A stretch of 64,000 bases of DNA from assembly GCA_038883855.1 (NCBI GenBank), contig JAVZLH010000001.1:128001-192000 (forward strand), given 5' to 3'. The translations under genes and the position numbers were made by a program. Numbering within the stretch: the first letter of the stretch is position 1; every line of letters begins with the position of its first letter. Below, in pieces: positions 10,402-17,443 of this stretch. The notes under the pieces were generated by a model. The model searched no databases. It was not told the DNA's origin and was given only the letters and a program-made list of their open reading frames with translations. Source of the stretch: Candidatus Bathyarchaeia archaeon (GTDB taxonomy: Archaea; Thermoproteota; Bathyarchaeia; Bathyarchaeales; Bathycorpusculaceae).

Positions 10402-12708
10402 ATGAAACTAACCGAAGCCGTAACACGAGGACGTATTGTTGCTGGACTAAAAAGTTTTGGCAAAATCCGCATAAAAATGGACCATGCATCATTGATGACT
10501 TATTCAACTTTGCTGCTGATCCTCTTCATCGCCTTTGCCGTACGCGCTTTCCCTCTTCGCTGGGAATTACAAAAAAATGTGATATCTCTCTCCGAGTTCG
10601 ACCCTTACTTTCAATATAGGCTAACAGAGCATATGGTGCAGTATGGTCTCCTGTCGCCTTACTGGCCTAAGCCATGGATTGACACTCAGCGTTGGTATCC
10701 AGATGGGCAGAACATGGCAATGTCATATCCAGCATTGCCCATGACCGCAGCAGCTCTCTATATTATTCTTTCAACTTTAGGTGTGAGAATTGAATTGATG
10801 AGTTTCTGCGCGATTCTTCCCGCAATCTTTGGTACTTTAGCATGTCTAATCATTTATTTTGTTGGAAAAGACATCGGGGGAAAATTCGCTGGCATGCTTT
10901 CAGCTCTCTTTTTAGCCTTAAGCTCCTCCTATATCCAAAGAACTTCTGTAGGGTTCTTTGACGATGAAACTATAGGAATGGTTGCCCTTTTATTGTTTAT
11001 TTTCATGTTTCTAAGAGCTATTGAAGAAGAAAGACCTGTCAGCTCAACCGTAAAATATTCGTTGGGCGCCGCCGCAGCACTAGCGTATTTCTGTTCCGGC
11101 TGGGGTGCATCATATTACCCAGTGGGTTTGACCGTTTTATTCGTTTTCGTGTTGATACTACTTAAGAGATACTCACAGCGTCTCCTCTTGTCATATAGCA
11201 TAACCTTTGGATTAGGATTGTTTGTTGCCATAAATGTTCCATATGTTTCAACAAGGTACTTAACATCGCAAGTTATAATGGCTGTTGCCGGAATCTTCAT
11301 ATTGCTTTTTATAAACGAGTTTCTCCGTGCCTTAACCACTACACGTTCAAAAGTTTTATGCATTATAATATCTTTGGCGGCGCTTGCGGGCGGTTTCGCA
11401 GTACTTTGGCACTTGGGTTATATGGAAGCTGTGGCTGGTAAGTTTCTTACTGTTATAAACCCTTTTCTGCGGGCAGAATCTCCCTTGTTCGAATCTGTGG
11501 CTGAGCATAGGATTTCAGCTTGGGGTTCCATCTACTACGAGTTTGGAATAGGATTAATCTTCTTTATAGCTGGTTTAGTATTCACCCTACGAAACCCTAC
11601 AAACAAAAATTTGTTCCTGCTTCTTTTTGGTTTAACATCCCTCTACTTTGCCTGCTCAATGGTGCGTTTACTCGTCATTTTGGCTCCCGCCTATGGTCTT
11701 CTGGCATCCGTTGGAGTTTTCAGCATTCTAAAACCTTTTAGCGCATTGATGATGGAACCTCAAAAAGTGTTTGCAAAAGCAAAGCATGGTTTAGATCGTG
11801 TCGGCAAAGAGTTCAGCGGGGCGGCTGTCTTCCTAATATTCATTATCTTAATGACAAACCTTGCCTTTTCACCGCAAACGGGCGGCATACCAAAAGTGTA
11901 CAGTCAAGCTTACGCTCCAGTTACAATCTCTGCTGGTAGCCTTCCCATAGCACCAAACGAGCCCGTACAGGAATGGTTCAATTTGCTTAATTGGTTAAAA
12001 AGCAACTTAGGATACAAGCATGAAAGCGAAAAAGTTGTTTGCAGCTGGTGGGACTATGGATATTGGCTGGCAATAATTGGTAATGTAACATCTCTTGCCG
12101 ACAACGCCACAATAAACAATACGCAAATAGAGAACATAGGATTTGTATTCATGGCTAATGAAACCGACGCATTAAAAATGCTAAAACTTTACAATGCGAA
12201 ATACATCTTAGTGTTCACAACCTTGTTTGTTGTGACGTATGGAGACTCTTGGTACGCATATTGGGCTGGCTACGGCGACGAGGGAAAGTGGATGTGGATG
12301 GCGCGAATTTCTGGTAAAGCGCAAACTCGCTTTCTTAACGGCGACGCCAACGGCGATGGAAAGACGGATGTTCCTAACTTGATAGATGAGGCTTCTTCGT
12401 GGGTTAACGAGACTAAATTTGGACAGTACAACGCTACTACAAGTAGATGGGAGTGGAACGATGCTGGAAAGAACTCCACAATTTACAAGCTGATGAGCTG
12501 GGGAAAACAGCGATGGTGCAACCAGAACGGCGCCACACCCGATGAGTCTGGCATTCAACCTGAATACTTTAAAGAAGCTTACTTTGCTGGCTTAGACTTG
12601 TCCGGTGATGAGGCGCTCAGCAGGTACGCAGTAGCTTCAGACCGTGCCTTGGTTCCTCTTGTGCTACTCTATGAAATTGACTGGCAAAAATACGGTTTAA
12701 GCCAGTAA
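10402..12708 (+). CDS. aglB: Oligosaccharyltransferase catalytic subunit AglB/STT3
   Basis: EFDPYF, GFFDDE, SVAEH, WWDYG, DNAT, GDEGKWMWMARI (eukaryote-type DK motif); multiple TM helices. Confidence 0.96.
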   Translation: MKLTEAVTRGRIVAGLKSFGKIRIKMDHASLMTYSTLLLILFIAFAVRAFPLRWELQKNVISLSEFDPYFQYRLTEHMVQYGLLSPYWPKPWIDTQRWYPDGQNMAMSYPALPMTAAALYIILSTLGVRIELMSFCAILPAIFGTLACLIIYFVGKDIGGKFAGMLSALFLALSSSYIQRTSVGFFDDETIGMVALLLFIFMFLRAIEEERPVSSTVKYSLGAAAALAYFCSGWGASYYPVGLTVLFVFVLILLKRYSQRLLLSYSITFGLGLFVAINVPYVSTRYLTSQVIMAVAGIFILLFINEFLRALTTTRSKVLCIIISLAALAGGFAVLWHLGYMEAVAGKFLTVINPFLRAESPLFESVAEHRISAWGSIYYEFGIGLIFFIAGLVFTLRNPTNKNLFLLLFGLTSLYFACSMVRLLVILAPAYGLLASVGVFSILKPFSALMMEPQKVFAKAKHGLDRVGKEFSGAAVFLIFIILMTNLAFSPQTGGIPKVYSQAYAPVTISAGSLPIAPNEPVQEWFNLLNWLKSNLGYKHESEKVVCSWWDYGYWLAIIGNVTSLADNATINNTQIENIGFVFMANETDALKMLKLYNAKYILVFTTLFVVTYGDSWYAYWAGYGDEGKWMWMARISGKAQTRFLNGDANGDGKTDVPNLIDEASSWVNETKFGQYNATTSRWEWNDAGKNSTIYKLMSWGKQRWCNQNGATPDESGIQPEYFKEAYFAGLDLSGDEALSRYAVASDRALVPLVLLYEIDWQKYGLSQ

Positions 12709-12712
12709 CGGA

Positions 12713-13576
12713 GTGGTAACTTGTTTGTTTCCAAAGGTTCCAGACCAACACAAGCCAAACAAGCCCTTGGTTCCAACAGGCTTAGGCGTAGTATATGTGA
12801 TATTAAGCGCAGCTTACCTTTTCCTGTTGCATTATTCGGTTGACACTGAAGAGGCTTTAACATTAGCTGCTTGCATATTGTTCGGCGGCTTTATGGGATT
12901 GCTTGACGATTGGATGGATTTAAGGTGGCGCTACAAAGCTTTTTTCCCGTTGATAGCTGCGATTCCACTTATTTCTTTGGCGACGAAACTCGGGCTTCGT
13001 ACGTCTATGGCTATTCCATTTCTTGGAACAATAGTCTTTGATAACTACTACTATTTTATGATTATTCCATTAATTGTAACGGTGACCACTAACACTGTAA
13101 ACCAGCTAGGTGGGTTGAACGGGTTGGAAACTATTTGCCCCTCTATAATCTTAATTGGGCTAATTTTCCTTTCAGGCTCTAACGCTGTTCTTTTATACTT
13201 CCCATTAGTTGTTTGGCTCATGCTTGCCTTTTTTAATTTTCAAGGAAAAATTTTTGTTGGAAACTCCGGGTCCTTTGCCATAGGGTTAACGATAGCGGCT
13301 TTTGCGATAATTGCTGATTTGAAGTCATTTTTGTTAATTGCACTTTTACCATATATCCTAAACTCTTCTTTGATTCTGTTAAATTATTTCTTTTTCAGAA
13401 CTAAGGCAAACGTCTCCTTTGACGGAAAGAAACTTTTTTCCGATCATAGAAGAAGTCTCATTACTCTTATCACTTATCATCGTCCTCTTACTGAACGCAA
13501 AATAGTAATAATAATCTCTGTTTTGGTTTCGTTGTCAACTTTTGCCGCATCAATATTCCAGTTGTTTATGACTTAA
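12713..13576 (+). CDS. aglH: Polyprenyl-phosphate GlcNAc-1-phosphate transferase (AglH/DPAGT1/MraY family)
   Basis: DQHKPNKPLVP, GLLDDW.DL.WRYK, TNTVNQLGGLNGLE, KIFVGNSG; directly after aglB; alternative TTG start at 12725. Confidence 0.8.
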   Translation: MVTCLFPKVPDQHKPNKPLVPTGLGVVYVILSAAYLFLLHYSVDTEEALTLAACILFGGFMGLLDDWMDLRWRYKAFFPLIAAIPLISLATKLGLRTSMAIPFLGTIVFDNYYYFMIIPLIVTVTTNTVNQLGGLNGLETICPSIILIGLIFLSGSNAVLLYFPLVVWLMLAFFNFQGKIFVGNSGSFAIGLTIAAFAIIADLKSFLLIALLPYILNSSLILLNYFFFRTKANVSFDGKKLFSDHRRSLITLITYHRPLTERKIVIIISVLVSLSTFAASIFQLFMT

Positions 13577-13655
13577 CCTGTATGTTGTTGTGCGACACAC
13601 AAAAGGCAAAAATCGTTTAGAGTGAGGCTAATCTTAGAGGTTAGAGGACAAGCTT

Positions 13656-14130
13656 GTGCACCAATTTAATGTAATGTGGGAAATCACCAGTTTGGTAGGA
13701 GTTAAACTGGATGTAAGGGCGAAGACTGAAGCAATCAATTTTGATGTCAAAGCTAAACTGGAAGAAAGCGAGGAGCGCAAGAGCCAGATGGTTGTTGTAG
13801 GCTTCCGCCTTTTTCTGGCAACTAAACCAAGTATTGTTGAAGTTTGAAATTGAGGGCACCGCAACTTTAGCGGGAAAGGGACATGGAAATAAACGAAATG
13901 CTGGAAATCGACCCAGAAACAAAAGTGCCCTATGTCTTTCAAAAATTTACTAACATGCCTTTACAGCAATTATTTGCTTTCAACAATTTTAGGCGCCCTC
14001 CACCACCCGTGATTTGTTATTCTCTAAAAGACAAGACGCGTCTGGAGAAGAGGTAAGCGTGGAAACGGGTGAAACTGGAACTGTAGGCGTTGAGGTTGCA
14101 ACGGAGGAAGTAAGTGTTTCTGAAAAATAG
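13656..14130 (+). pseudogene. Multiply frameshifted conserved hypothetical gene (SecB-like fold suspected)
   Basis: Coherent peptide pieces across frames: ...NFDVKAKLEE..VGFRLFLATKPSIV / KFEIEGTATLAGK / DMEINEMLEIDPETKVPYVFQK / IY*HAFTA / YLLSTILGA.PP / DLLFSKRQ...EK*. Confidence 0.7.
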
Positions 14131-14182
14131 TTTTCAGTAACATTTAATAGGAATAATTCTCTTCCGTTTAGAAACTGTTAAT

Positions 14183-14237
14183 GGCGGGTGAGTGGGCCTC
14201 CACCCGTTCCGCAATAAAACCCCGGAGTAGGAGGTGA
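14183..14237 (+). promoter_or_regulatory. Structured 5' leader of queT (candidate preQ0/preQ1 riboswitch-like pseudoknot with anti-SD)
   Basis: Stem GGCGGGTG(14183-90)/CACCCGTT(14201-08), 10-nt loop AGTGGGCCTC, A-rich AATAAAA then CCCC able to pair with loop GGG; CCTCC is complementary to the SD GGAGG. Confidence 0.4.
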
Positions 14238-14241
14238 AAAG

Positions 14242-14769
14242 TTGAAATTTGACAGTAGAGATTTAGCGTTGACAGCAGTTTTTGCCGCACTTTACGCTGC
14301 GCTGGTCATTCTTCTGGCGCCAATAAGTTTCGGGGTCTATCAAGTTAGGGTTGCTGACGCTTTACTTCCCTTATCAATGATATTTGGAGTTCCCATCGCC
14401 ATTGGGTCAAGCTTAGGTTGTTTGGTTGCGAATGTTTACGGCGGTTTAGGCGCCATCGACATTGTGGGCGGAGCGATTGCAAACTTTCTGGCATGTGTCT
14501 CAGCGTGGTATGTTGGCAGAAGTGGGTTTGCAAGTAGGCTTCTGGGAAGTTTTGTTGAAACACTGGTTATAACTGTAATTGTTGGTGGTTATTTGTCGTT
14601 AATATTTGATGTCCCCGTTGAGCTTGGATTGTTCGGCATTTTCGTCGGCTCTATCATTTCGATAAACATTTTAGGCTTTGCCCTTGAAGAAGTTTTACAA
14701 CGAAGCGGCGTATGGAAAAGGCACGCTGGAAAAGTTGCAACAAACATTGATGCGCATGGTACTACATGA
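14242..14769 (+). CDS. queT: QueT-family ECF S-component (queuosine/archaeosine precursor transporter)
   Basis: AVFAALYAAL...LAPISFG.YQVRVADAL..L, GCLVAN, G.IDIVGG; TTG start with GGAGGTGA SD. Confidence 0.88.
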   Translation: MKFDSRDLALTAVFAALYAALVILLAPISFGVYQVRVADALLPLSMIFGVPIAIGSSLGCLVANVYGGLGAIDIVGGAIANFLACVSAWYVGRSGFASRLLGSFVETLVITVIVGGYLSLIFDVPVELGLFGIFVGSIISINILGFALEEVLQRSGVWKRHAGKVATNIDAHGTT

Positions 14770-17443
14770 AGCGTTCCAGTTTTGTTAATCCTATTATTTC
14801 GTCGAAGTCTAAACCTAAAGCATCTAAAACCTGGTCGAATGTTGAGTGGAGATAGGCTATGTACTTGTCAACATCTATCTCGTTTTTTGTTGCCAACTCC
14901 ACCGGTTTAACATGGGGTTCGTTGACGACTTTCACGAAGCTTATTAAGTCGCCTGCTTTAGGCTCTACGCCTCCTTCTTTTAGAATTCTTGCTGCTTTAA
15001 CATGTTGAGGTGTTGTTTTTGTGTAACGTTCTGGCTCTTCGCCTAAGACCACGTTGAAGGCGAGTTCGTTTAGGCTTTCCCACTCGCGTCTTTTCAATCG
15101 CATGTAACAGTCGCGGATGTTTCGGATAATATCCTTTTTTGCGTCTTCGAAGTCTGCTGGAGTTTTCACGGCGGCTAAGCGTTCTTTCATTTTGTCGAAA
15201 GCCTTCTTGATAAACAGCGGTATGTGCCTCTTTTTGCCTGTCAACCCTTTCACGTCAACGCTTCCGTCCTCTAAAACTCCTAAATAATTCTTTTTTCTTG
15301 AGCTAAAAACTGCATATCGGTAAACCTTGTCCACATCCAAGCTCATTTTCAGTTCGCGTTCAGTCCACTCTCCCAACTCGCGGATTTGCTCTTTTGAAGG
15401 GTTCTTTAGGAAAACGCTGTCCGTGTCACCATAAAGCACTTTTATGCCCAACTCCTCCGCCCTATTAATTATTTGGGTTATTGCGTGTCTTCCAATGGCT
15501 GCTGTTGCCTCCGCAACTGGCGGGCAATATAAGTCGAAGGTTTCAGCCCCGAAGACTCCGTAGCTGGCGTTTAAAATTACCTTGAGGGCTCCTTGAATGA
15601 TGTTGTACCAGCTTCTCAACTCTGCCGTCAAAGCCTTGTCTTTAGATTTCGGCTTGTACCATTGTACTCGCAAATCTCTAAGTGAACCTATCAGAAGACT
15701 TTCTAAACCCCGCTTTTTTGTGCAGACCCAATGGGGTGTTCCTGGAACAAGGTTTGTGTGGCATTCTGGATGCGGACACAAAATGGACTGGTAGCCTAGG
15801 TTCCAAACTTTTATTATTGATGGGTATAGGCTTGGGAAATCCATTATGGCAACGTTGAAGTGGACGCCTGGGACTGGTTCAACAACTATGGCGCCCTTGT
15901 ACTTTTTGCCTTTAATTATGGCTTTTGTGGCTGTCTTGCCTTTTAAGGCCAGTATGTCTTCGGCGTTTGGGATGAGCATGTTTCTTCTGCGGTGTTCTCG
16001 GTGCATGAAATTTCTTATCCAGCGGGAAACTCCTTGGCGACTAACGTCTTCCATTGGCATGCTGCTGATTCTGGCTAAAACAAGGATAAGCTTCATCACC
16101 AGCTCATCTTCGAAGCTTGTAAGCGTGAATGTGATTTCAGCGTCTCTAAAACAGTATTGGGCAAGCTCAGTGTAGGTTAACTCTCCTATGCCCTTTTCTA
16201 GAGGTATCTTCTCCATTCCGACAAGGGCTTTGCCCACATCGTCGAGCGTAACATCTCGATAGCGGTTGTTGAAGGCGTAAATTTGGATTGAGCGGTTAAA
16301 GAAGAACTTGTAAAGGTCTATGTGGACACCATATTTTAGAAGACATACACGCCTACCTACATCTATTGGGACGTCGTCCCTTCTGAAACCGAAATTCTGC
16401 GCTCGATGAGCCAGATAACGCAGGTCAAAATCGTCGCCATTAAAAGTTACTACGAAGGGATAACTCCACAGAACATCAAAAATGGCTTTTATAAGCTTCT
16501 CTTCCGAATCAAAATACACAAGCTCCACACCAGCTGGTAAACGCTCAGCGCCTTCGCGGACCCCTTCCCGCCTTAAAAGTAAAACCTTCTTTTGTCCATC
16601 CGAACCATAAATTGAAGCGCAAACAACAGGGTAAGCAGCTTCTCGGGGGTCCGGCATTCTTGTTGGAACTGGCGTGTGCACCTCTATGTCGATGGCGGCA
16701 CGGTGAAACTTTGGAGCTGGATACTCCAGAAGCCTAGCCCACTGCTCAATATGTTCAAGCTCCTCTGGATGAGCGTCTCTAAATATTCCCTTTATTTTCT
16801 GGATGTTCTCCTCTACTTCTTCCAATCGTTTTGGAACCAGTTTGCCGTCTCTAACCTCATATATCATTCCCGGCCAAAGTTCACGGTCATAAATGTAGGA
16901 CTGGTAATACTTTATCTTGGACTCCCAAACTTTAATTGCCTCTGCTGGTATTGGGGTATCTGAAACTTTTGGGAAGTCCTCTGGGATTATGTCCCTTATG
17001 CATCCTGTTGGGCGTCCACCAATGGCTAACGGGTCTTTCGCCACTATTTTCGTTACTTTAACCATTTTATCTTGTAGCGGGTCAAACCTCTCTTCGAGTT
17101 CGAAATGGTCAAACCCTGGATGTTTTGTTAGGCGGTCTATTTTCTCAAGCTCGTATGGTGAGAGGTTTGTTAGGCAGTAGGGTTTATGTCCAGAATTGTC
17201 ATACCAAAAATAGATTTTCCCTGATGTTGGCTCGTAAAGTTTGATTAGGGCTTTTCCAGCTTTTCCGTCGTATGTGGCTGAAACAAAATATGAGGGCGGC
17301 AAGTTTTCAGGAGCCAACGGGGGAAAAGTACGCTGTCTTTTTTCTTTTTTTATGGCTTCTGTGAAGGGCAAGGCTTCCGTTTTGGCCTCTTCTTTGGGCT
17401 CTGCTCTTGGAAGCGAAAATTCGTCGAGACTTCTCTGCGCCAT
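14762..17443 (-). CDS. polB: Family B DNA polymerase (PolB1 type)
   Basis: Exonuclease motifs DIE, FNGDDFD, YCFRD; polymerase motifs DFPSLYPS, KVILNASYG, YGDTDS, KKNYLG; N-terminal WYD..GHKPYCL typical of PolB1. Confidence 0.96.
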   Translation of the reverse strand: MAQRSLDEFSLPRAEPKEEAKTEALPFTEAIKKEKRQRTFPPLAPENLPPSYFVSATYDGKAGKALIKLYEPTSGKIYFWYDNSGHKPYCLTNLSPYELEKIDRLTKHPGFDHFELEERFDPLQDKMVKVTKIVAKDPLAIGGRPTGCIRDIIPEDFPKVSDTPIPAEAIKVWESKIKYYQSYIYDRELWPGMIYEVRDGKLVPKRLEEVEENIQKIKGIFRDAHPEELEHIEQWARLLEYPAPKFHRAAIDIEVHTPVPTRMPDPREAAYPVVCASIYGSDGQKKVLLLRREGVREGAERLPAGVELVYFDSEEKLIKAIFDVLWSYPFVVTFNGDDFDLRYLAHRAQNFGFRRDDVPIDVGRRVCLLKYGVHIDLYKFFFNRSIQIYAFNNRYRDVTLDDVGKALVGMEKIPLEKGIGELTYTELAQYCFRDAEITFTLTSFEDELVMKLILVLARISSMPMEDVSRQGVSRWIRNFMHREHRRRNMLIPNAEDILALKGKTATKAIIKGKKYKGAIVVEPVPGVHFNVAIMDFPSLYPSIIKVWNLGYQSILCPHPECHTNLVPGTPHWVCTKKRGLESLLIGSLRDLRVQWYKPKSKDKALTAELRSWYNIIQGALKVILNASYGVFGAETFDLYCPPVAEATAAIGRHAITQIINRAEELGIKVLYGDTDSVFLKNPSKEQIRELGEWTERELKMSLDVDKVYRYAVFSSRKKNYLGVLEDGSVDVKGLTGKKRHIPLFIKKAFDKMKERLAAVKTPADFEDAKKDIIRNIRDCYMRLKRREWESLNELAFNVVLGEEPERYTKTTPQHVKAARILKEGGVEPKAGDLISFVKVVNEPHVKPVELATKNEIDVDKYIAYLHSTFDQVLDALGLDFDEIIGLTKLERFM

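Follow-up and report, generated by a model that had tools for sequence, protein, structure and literature searches.

The window analysed here is a 64,000-nucleotide (nt) stretch of a genome assembly of Candidatus Bathyarchaeia archaeon (GenBank GCA_038883855.1, contig JAVZLH010000001.1, positions 128,001 to 192,000 of the forward strand), and coordinates are counted from its first letter. It encodes queT and, directly upstream of it, a compact leader ending in the Shine-Dalgarno (SD) sequence of the gene, which is the subject of this study. The features of both are collected in Table 1. A preliminary description of this DNA had pointed to a GC-rich island in AT-rich surroundings and proposed that it encodes a deazaguanine-sensing RNA. 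The island is real: the G+C content is 64% over 14183-14235, against 34% in the preceding 100 nt and 42.8% in the whole window. Every sequence word named in that description, including a TATA-like TTTAATAG claimed at about 14143, was found in its place.

Table 1. Elements of the queT leader and its gene in the window.
Feature	Position	Strand	Basis or remark
TATA-like box TTTAATAG of the queT promoter	14143-14150	+	sequence; positional TATA signal across 155 upstream regions
P1 5' strand, A U [G] G C G G	14181-14187	+	covariation of outer pairs
Junction J1, GUGA	14188-14191	+	G6 and U7 near-invariant; positions 8 and 9 always purines
P2 5' strand GUGG, partner CCAC at 14200-14203	14192-14195	+	optional local hairpin
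Pseudoknot 5' strand / anti-SD, G CCUCC	14196-14201	+	pairs with 14230-14235
A C, then invariant junction J2, CCGUU	14202-14208	+	A C is P2 3' end or weak pseudoknot extension
P1 3' strand, C C G C [A] A U	14209-14215	+	alignment and covariation
Linker L3: A-rich tract, near-invariant (C)CCCGG at 14220-14225, then AGUA	14216-14229	+	conservation
Shine-Dalgarno GGAGG(U), pseudoknot 3' strand	14230-14235	+	7 nt before the TTG start
queT (175 residues, TTG start), the regulated gene	14242-14769	+	open reading frame; Pfam PF06177 QueT, E 8.1e-27, 94.7 bits (cut-off 33.7)

The position of the leader within the transcript can be judged from its promoter. Across 155 distinct upstream regions, counting from the first base of the closing helix P1, positions -40..-36 are A-rich and positions -35..-28 T-rich; 92 TATA-like words start in the -35..-31 bin. 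From this signal, which lies 28-35 nt ahead of P1, the motif falls at the 5' end of the mRNA. The box of the window lies at -40 from P1, 5 nt further upstream than the peak, which gives a leader of about 70 nt. Applying the usual archaeal spacing between TATA box and start, transcription is predicted to begin at about 14170-14176, a few nt before P1. A 70-nt leader, as first proposed from the TATA-like box, is backed by the positional signal and stays a prediction.

A protein search with QueT covered 61 genomes, namely the window's own and 60 relatives (the 61 relatives hereafter), and retrieved a QueT match in 54. At 30 fetched loci, about 60 nt before the start codon are almost identical in front of QueT proteins 32-95% identical to that of the window, and the near-identical leader persists where this identity falls to 32-45%. 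Pattern and model matches combined place the leader at 29 of the 30 protein-found loci. A degenerate pattern derived from the conserved block retrieved at least 120 stretches from a species-level genome collection, and a looser pattern at least 120 further contigs from metagenomes. The 147 genome loci comprise 27 of the 30 protein-found loci and 120 from the pattern listing; 287 distinct copies were gathered over all loci. An alignment of 141 sequences (A1) was used to build a covariance model (R1). In the window's genome, R1 found one strong copy (73 bits) and one noise-level match (13 bits, E 0.29). Copies were present in 53 of the 61 relatives, one strong copy per genome. R1 copies were also found in 31 of 151 genomes sampled from the window's phylum and in 24 of 151 from the phylum of G204, a record labelled Promethearchaeati.

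The motif follows QueT closely. Among the 61 relatives, the seven genomes without a QueT match also lacked the motif, and G054 was the only one with QueT and no R1 match. By coordinates, checked by eye, 56 of 57 R1 matches adjoin a QueT match, the exception being a 20.5-bit match. The G054 leader (L008:1330-1498) keeps GGCGGG...CCGCC-UUUACCCC without the anti-SD in the loop and has a separate CCUCCGC/GUGGGGG hairpin beside the start codon; it may be a rearranged variant. A congener of G054, G157 (L236), has an unrelated leader. G121, which has a canonical copy, holds a weak second R1 match of 27 bits (L211:501-575, that is, G121:C1:9319-9393), where a GUCGG...CCGAC helix followed by CACAAAACCCCGAU and an SD lies upstream of a 214-residue membrane protein without a Pfam family. 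Three weaker matches (L209, L210 and L152; 13-19 bits) cover only the 3' half of the motif and were dropped. That of L210 follows sequence that looks protein-coding by eye, that of L209 lies in AT-rich DNA just upstream of a TTG-led reading frame, and that of L152 is known from its aligned row alone.

Among the 80 titled matches listed, 67 carried Bathyarchae* or Bathycorpusculum labels, 5 Nitrososphaerota or Nitrososphaeria, 3 Methanomethylicota or Methanomethylicus, 2 'uncultured archaeon' and 1 Promethearchaeati. These labels are archaeal in all cases except two, a metagenome-assembled genome labelled Krumholzibacteriaceae (L104, a full copy with a bacterial label) and Antarcticimicrobium (L108). 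The latter is a chance pattern match without SD or QueT, and was left out of A1 and of the counts. The former (L104:4503-4554, in the 1.3 Mb genome G205) combines the full motif with QueT and, about 35 nt upstream, a TATA box of archaeal style; mislabelling or misbinning of archaeal sequence could explain this, as could transfer into a bacterium.

P1 (GGCGG:CCGCC) is backed by covariation in A1. Four of its pairs were fixed by the search pattern and carry no covariation information. The next outward pair (column 5/41) was GC in 123 sequences, GU in 7, AU in 4, CG in 2, UA in 2 and unpaired in 3, and column 4/42 was UA in 77, AU in 18, CG in 5, UG in 3, GU in 2, GC in 1 and unpaired in 35. In 52 model-found copies, among whose parsed helices L232 is not included, column 5/41 was GC in 30, AU in 10, CG in 4, UG in 3, UA in 2, GU in 2 and CA in 1.

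The second helix joins the loop to the SD. In the window it runs from C14201-G14230 through C14197-G14234, plus G14196/U14235. Its columns in A1 are 94.7% paired, with 7 of 9 pairs altered on both sides. Counted jointly, P1 and the loop:SD helix reach 95.1% pairing; column shuffles give 84.7 ± 0.5% (0 of 500 attain the observed value) and slid partners 48-57%. Of the 15 pairs in the two helices, 9 are altered on both sides. Each loop also suits its own tail: the mean helix length is 6.57, whereas permuted tails give 6.19 ± 0.07 and attain 6.57 in 0 of 200 permutations. Compensated variants include CCUCCC:GGGAGG, CACCUCC:GGAGGUG, UUACCUCC:GGAGGUAA, GUCUCCC:GGGAGGC and CCCAUC:GGUGGG, together with helices that are not SD-like (UUUCCGAC:GUCGGAAG, CUCGCA:UGCGAG, GUCUCUU:GAGAGAC and CCACC:GGUGG); in L301, ACAUCUC stands opposite GAGAUGU (aligned rows read by eye). 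A possible extension, from the A C of the table to G14227 U14228, is 84.3% paired with 5 compensatory cells. On comparative grounds, the RNA is shown to fold as an H-type pseudoknot, with a P1 of 5-7 base pairs (bp) and the loop CCUCC paired with the SD GGAGG. The complementarity of these two words had been noticed before and read as a mutually exclusive, SD-sequestering alternative to the aptamer. Covariation confirms that the two pair, and the data put the pairing inside the conserved fold.

Other helices fared less well. The preliminary description took P1 to be GGCGGGUG (14183-14190) paired with CACCCGUU (14201-14208). Both strands are present and can pair, and 97.9% of cells in A1 are pairable; this 8-bp stem shows no compensatory change and 15 A/C mismatches at its top pair, and was rejected as P1. 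It is a possible alternative conformer. Nearest-neighbour energies for the window are -10.0 kcal/mol for P1 with P2, -11.3 for the GGCGGGUG:CACCCGUU hairpin and -11.3 for the loop:SD duplex. A pseudoknot between GGG and CCC, also proposed earlier, has no covariation, and the C-run is unchanged in 8-9 copies that lose the Gs. The local hairpin P2 (GUGG:CCAC) is 96.4% pairable with one compensatory cell in A1, and its U11:A20 pair is U-A in 257, G-C in 13 and U-G in 6 of the 287 copies. P2 is missing in minimal variants such as L229 (GCGG-GUG-GCCCAU-CCGUU-CCGC) and was retained as optional, not required. Its upper pairs draw on Cs that the pseudoknot also needs, so P2 could serve as an anti-anti-SD. 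A helix joining CCG of J2 to CGG of the linker was considered and dropped, as L206 and L208 lose GG yet keep CCG. Resemblance to a tRNA acceptor/D-arm, judged by eye, was set aside because both helices would need the same bases.

About 20 unpaired nt around the junction of P1 and the pseudoknot are invariant: GUG after P1, CCGUU before its 3' strand, and AAAnCCCGG in the linker. Over the 287 distinct copies, J1 reads GUGA in 243, GUAG in 21, GUAA in 11 and GUGG in 11; the remaining one, a 'GCUU' row in L271, is a parsing artefact. CCGUU is kept in model-found copies where the search pattern did not impose it. The linker from P1 to the SD measures 12-25 nt and has no conserved hairpin within it; in the window the A-tract lies at 14213-14219 and CCCC at 14220-14223. 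AAA(C/A/U)CCCGG is kept in nearly all copies, divergent ones included, and this conservation suggests a role in docking or in a ligand pocket.

The genes behind the motif belong to one pathway. Among 267 loci examined (147 from genomes and 120 from metagenomes), queT is the first downstream gene in 252. A QueT-like first reading frame was found at 141 of the 147 genome loci, of which two others are cut by the end of the locus, one is the chance match L108 and three differ; the metagenome loci have QueT first in 111 of 120, with five cut and four different. Model-found copies agree, with QueT directly downstream in all 39 fetched from the relatives and the window's phylum and in 13 of 14 from the phylum of G204, the remaining one being cut. 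L018:273-2022, with QueT first, has the order motif-queT-queC-queT. The divergent loci number seven. In L070 the motif is followed by QueC (E 6e-63) and then QueT. In L241 and L354 a QueE-like radical S-adenosylmethionine (SAM) protein and then QueC follow. At L092:4492-7415 the motif precedes a radical-SAM protein, a 483-residue GATase-QueC fusion and a DUF2848 protein; the best NCBIfam matches of this radical-SAM protein are five QueE models (E 4e-30, below their cut-offs), and QueD was not found in its genome (G207, completeness unknown).

Three further loci have less familiar proteins behind the motif. L060:5727-6557 (- strand) encodes a 277-residue membrane protein without a Pfam or NCBIfam match, followed by QueC; its sole lead is a language-model resemblance (0.93) to the S components of energy-coupling factor (ECF) transporters. 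A weak match to ECF-ribofla_trS, an ECF S component, lies at L353:502-792 (- strand), and a 245-residue protein without a Pfam or NCBIfam family at L268:246-980 (+ strand). From their position these three are candidate new transporters of deazaguanine precursors. Altogether, the controlled genes are queT, queC, queE-like genes, the GATase-QueC fusion and ECF-S-like membrane protein genes next to QueC. Two motif-led QueT matches (G010:C1:412019-412519 and G024:C37:56778-57228) contain in-frame stops, two TGA and one TAG, which could be due to pseudogenes, alignment artefacts or recoding.

For the synthesis of archaeosine, archaea rely on tRNA-guanine transglycosylase (TGT) to insert preQ0 into tRNA, and preQ1 is not needed. 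Genome G000, which is 85% complete, has one TGT-family gene (E 7.7e-85) with a DUF5591 domain (E 1.3e-15). No real QueC was found in it (a 24-bit partial PP-loop match only), no QueD and no QueE-like protein better than E 4e-4, so it would depend on salvage. True QueC occurs in 13 of the 61 relatives, where 13 of 14 QueC genes directly follow a queT that has the motif in front (judged by eye from coordinates). The queT-queC relatives include G010, G018, G046 and G052; in four queT-queC genomes that are 97-100% complete, QueD and a convincing QueE were not found. Such operons suggest that 7-carboxy-7-deazaguanine (CDG) is imported and finished to preQ0 in one step.

The motif was compared with known RNA families by scanning window positions 13900-14400 (E <= 10) and 20 further loci (E <= 5) against the covariance models of Rfam 15. 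The window gave five unrelated weak matches, none on 14160-14241, and the other loci two unrelated ones. The models for preQ1-I (RF00522), preQ1-II (RF01054) and preQ1-III (RF02680) matched neither the window nor the 20 loci, which agrees with the earlier remark that the sequence does not fit preQ1-I base for base. No description of the motif was found in the literature covered, outside which lie most subscription journals and supplements, nor by a term search of a bioRxiv preprint (10.64898/2026.10.21.760802).

Taken together, the leader is almost certainly a conserved structured cis-regulatory RNA. It has the general traits of a riboswitch, that is, a conserved structured RNA in a 5' untranslated region (UTR), covarying helices, an invariant unpaired core and genes of one pathway, and very probably it is a metabolite riboswitch of the deazaguanine pathway, whether its ligand is preQ0 or a related compound. 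We propose, with a probability of roughly 70%, that the 5' UTR of queT contains, at 14181-14235, the aptamer and expression platform of a preQ0-responsive riboswitch from a class not described before. The earlier suggestion of a new archaeal RNA tied to deazaguanines and controlling precursor salvage is upheld in its broader form by the lack of an Rfam match, the linkage to queT, and queC or queE-like genes behind the motif elsewhere. The regulon (importer, QueE-like and QueC), together with the physiology, makes preQ0 the likeliest effector and CDG its main alternative.

In the proposed mechanism, a free 7-deazaguanine base, probably preQ0, would be bound in a pocket built from the invariant unpaired nucleotides. 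At high levels of 7-deazaguanine, binding would take place at the junction of P1 and the pseudoknot and the linker would dock. The pseudoknot would then be locked, with the SD kept paired to the loop and translation of queT or its operon blocked; in other genomes the same switch would turn off the synthesis genes queC and queE-like. When the pool is low, the 3' strand would be released, freeing the SD for initiating ribosomes, and in many copies the P2 hairpin GUGG:CCAC would capture part of the anti-SD in the absence of ligand. An OFF switch is favoured because the conserved, covarying fold is the one that sequesters the SD, and it also fits feedback logic and the behaviour of preQ1-II described in a 2024 review (PMC11625349). 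We consider the combination of preQ0 as ligand and an OFF response somewhat better than an even bet.

Several points weigh against this reading. Folded alone, the window sequence has a minimum free energy of -19.3 kcal/mol (z = 0.16; 113 of 200 shuffles fold equally well or better), and the structure of lowest energy is the hairpin of the preliminary description, not P1. The window's own P1 includes a G14183/A14213 mismatch between its U-A and A-U pairs. Covariation cells count sequences, not evolutionary events, and the count of pseudoknot pairs altered on both sides owes part of its size to a single coordinated insertion (CCUCC to CCUCCC with GGAGG to GGGAGG) that many relatives inherited. 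The loop CCUCC matches the anti-SD word of 16S rRNA, so its 5 core bp by themselves would form with any SD. Since the search pattern fixed most core columns of A1, invariance there is a matter of construction; the invariance of the core was tested with the model-found and protein-found copies only. As for function, the pocket, the ligand and the OFF direction are proposed by analogy with bacterial preQ1 switches. The incompleteness of G000 makes its missing genes weak evidence, and queT-queC operons in genomes lacking QueD and QueE matches leave room for CDG as ligand.

The same riboswitch-like RNA might have a natural ligand other than preQ0, namely CDG, preQ1, the archaeosine base, guanine or another purine. 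This is the alternative that survives best, and we regard it as unlikely. Import of CDG is suggested by the many copies that head queT-queC operons and by the near-complete genomes among their hosts in which QueD and QueE were not found, and a response to preQ1 would agree with the control of bacterial queT genes by preQ1 switches, as described in two sources (PMC11625349; PMC5372724). Against preQ1, its formation needs QueF, which was found in only one of the 61 relatives. Against CDG and the others, the motif is found at the head of queE-like-queC operons too, and of queT where a genome has no QueC, and preQ0 is the product shared by all these settings. A general purine sensor would be expected at purine genes, and none was found behind the motif among the 267 pattern-found loci examined.

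A role of the pseudoknot as operator for an RNA-binding protein, for example TGT or an unknown repressor, is less probable still. Binding of a small molecule by the leader is itself predicted from sequence comparison, the RNA is G-rich and compact, and TGT enzymes are said to act on mRNA hairpins, modification of virF mRNA by TGT having reportedly been described; all of this would suit an operator. No conserved candidate protein gene lies beside the motif, however, and the neighbours outside the que pathway vary. The same roughly 20 unpaired bases are invariant in two archaeal phyla, as is typical of metabolite pockets, and the regulon mirrors that of bacterial preQ1 riboswitches. Least probable is a ligand-independent structure that masks the SD (a constitutive attenuator, an RNA thermometer or an mRNA stability element). 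In its favour, the helix is read most simply as a complementary CCUCC covering the SD, and some hosts come from hot springs (according to labels of runs that contained only a small share of the stretch). A masking hairpin, however, needs neither P1, nor the invariant GUG/CCGUU/AAAnCCCGG, nor a long-range pseudoknot; these elements are kept in 287 distinct copies while helix sequences drift and compensate, and control limited to queT, queC and queE-like genes points to sensing specific to the pathway.

The riboswitch proposed here resembles several known systems in part. The core of preQ1-I spans about 34 nt and that of the archaeal leader about 53-55 nt. Both have, in this order, a P1 of about 5 bp whose loop supplies the 5' half of the second helix, a linker rich in A after P1, and a 3' half overlapping the SD (preQ1-I types 1-3, as presented in PMC11625349). 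The likeness is in topology only, since sizes and conserved bases differ: the archaeal leader has long loops, its GUG, CCGUU and CCCGG blocks have no counterpart in preQ1-I, and its second helix, of 5-9 bp, is the SD pairing itself. PreQ1-II (the COG4708/queT motif) is likewise found in the 5' UTR of queT with the SD inside a pseudoknot helix near the presumed pocket. According to the same review, preQ1-II is limited to Bacillota and acts only on translation, with the SD buried in the pseudoknot helix, and it forms an HLout pseudoknot of four helices, including an embedded P4 hairpin, with U-A-U triples (PMC11625349). The archaeal leader, in contrast, is G/C-rich, has no linker hairpin and not four helices, and its expected ligand is preQ0, not preQ1.

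In SAM-II, SAM-V and guanidine-III riboswitches, also compact pseudoknots, the ligand pins a 3' tail to a hairpin loop and so hides the ribosome-binding site; none of them was matched in the Rfam scans, and their gene context differs. To our knowledge, very few riboswitches have been validated in archaea; those described, such as fluoride/crcB and thiamine pyrophosphate (TPP), belong to classes first defined in bacteria. Like these, the queT motif would act in cis in archaeal 5' UTRs; unlike them, it is absent from Rfam 15 and, among the matches listed, archaeal only, bar L104 and L108. Three preQ1 classes are recognised in the 2024 review, in whose accessible text the word 'archaea' was not found (PMC11625349). 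We lean towards viewing the motif as a fourth structural class for 7-deazaguanines and the first native to archaea, tuned to preQ0, purely translational and a marker of dependence on scavenging. So conceived, the class would span Bathyarchaeia and other Thermoproteota and reach an Asgard-labelled phylum.

The proposal can be tested with synthetic RNA and commercial preQ0, given the small core (about 55 nt), its clear covariation, a regulon limited to one pathway and the hundreds of variants that nature supplies. If it is true, the leader would provide a new aptamer fold for 7-deazaguanines and a natural SD-dependent translational switch for archaeal genetics. The data suggest that synthesis of the archaeosine precursor is beyond many Bathyarchaeia, which take it up ready-made or take up CDG that is finished by QueC. 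Such import would be a cross-feeding dependency regulated at the RNA level, and sediment and hot-spring archaea would, if the proposal holds, rely widely on preQ0 or CDG scavenged from other organisms.

The surroundings of the locus offer some minor observations. Upstream, window positions 10402-13576 encode an STT3/AglB oligosaccharyltransferase (768 residues) and a family-4 glycosyltransferase (287 residues), and no confident gene was found at 13580-14130. A 38-residue reading frame lies at 14014-14130, and its C-terminus (...EEVSVSEK*) seems by eye to be kept in the upstream regions of a number of relatives. The TATA-like box begins within an inverted repeat at 14112-14147 (UUUCUGAAAA / UUUUCAG). 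Downstream, a family B DNA polymerase (893 residues, 14762-17443) is convergent with queT, and the stop codons of the two genes overlap by 8 nt (14762-14769).

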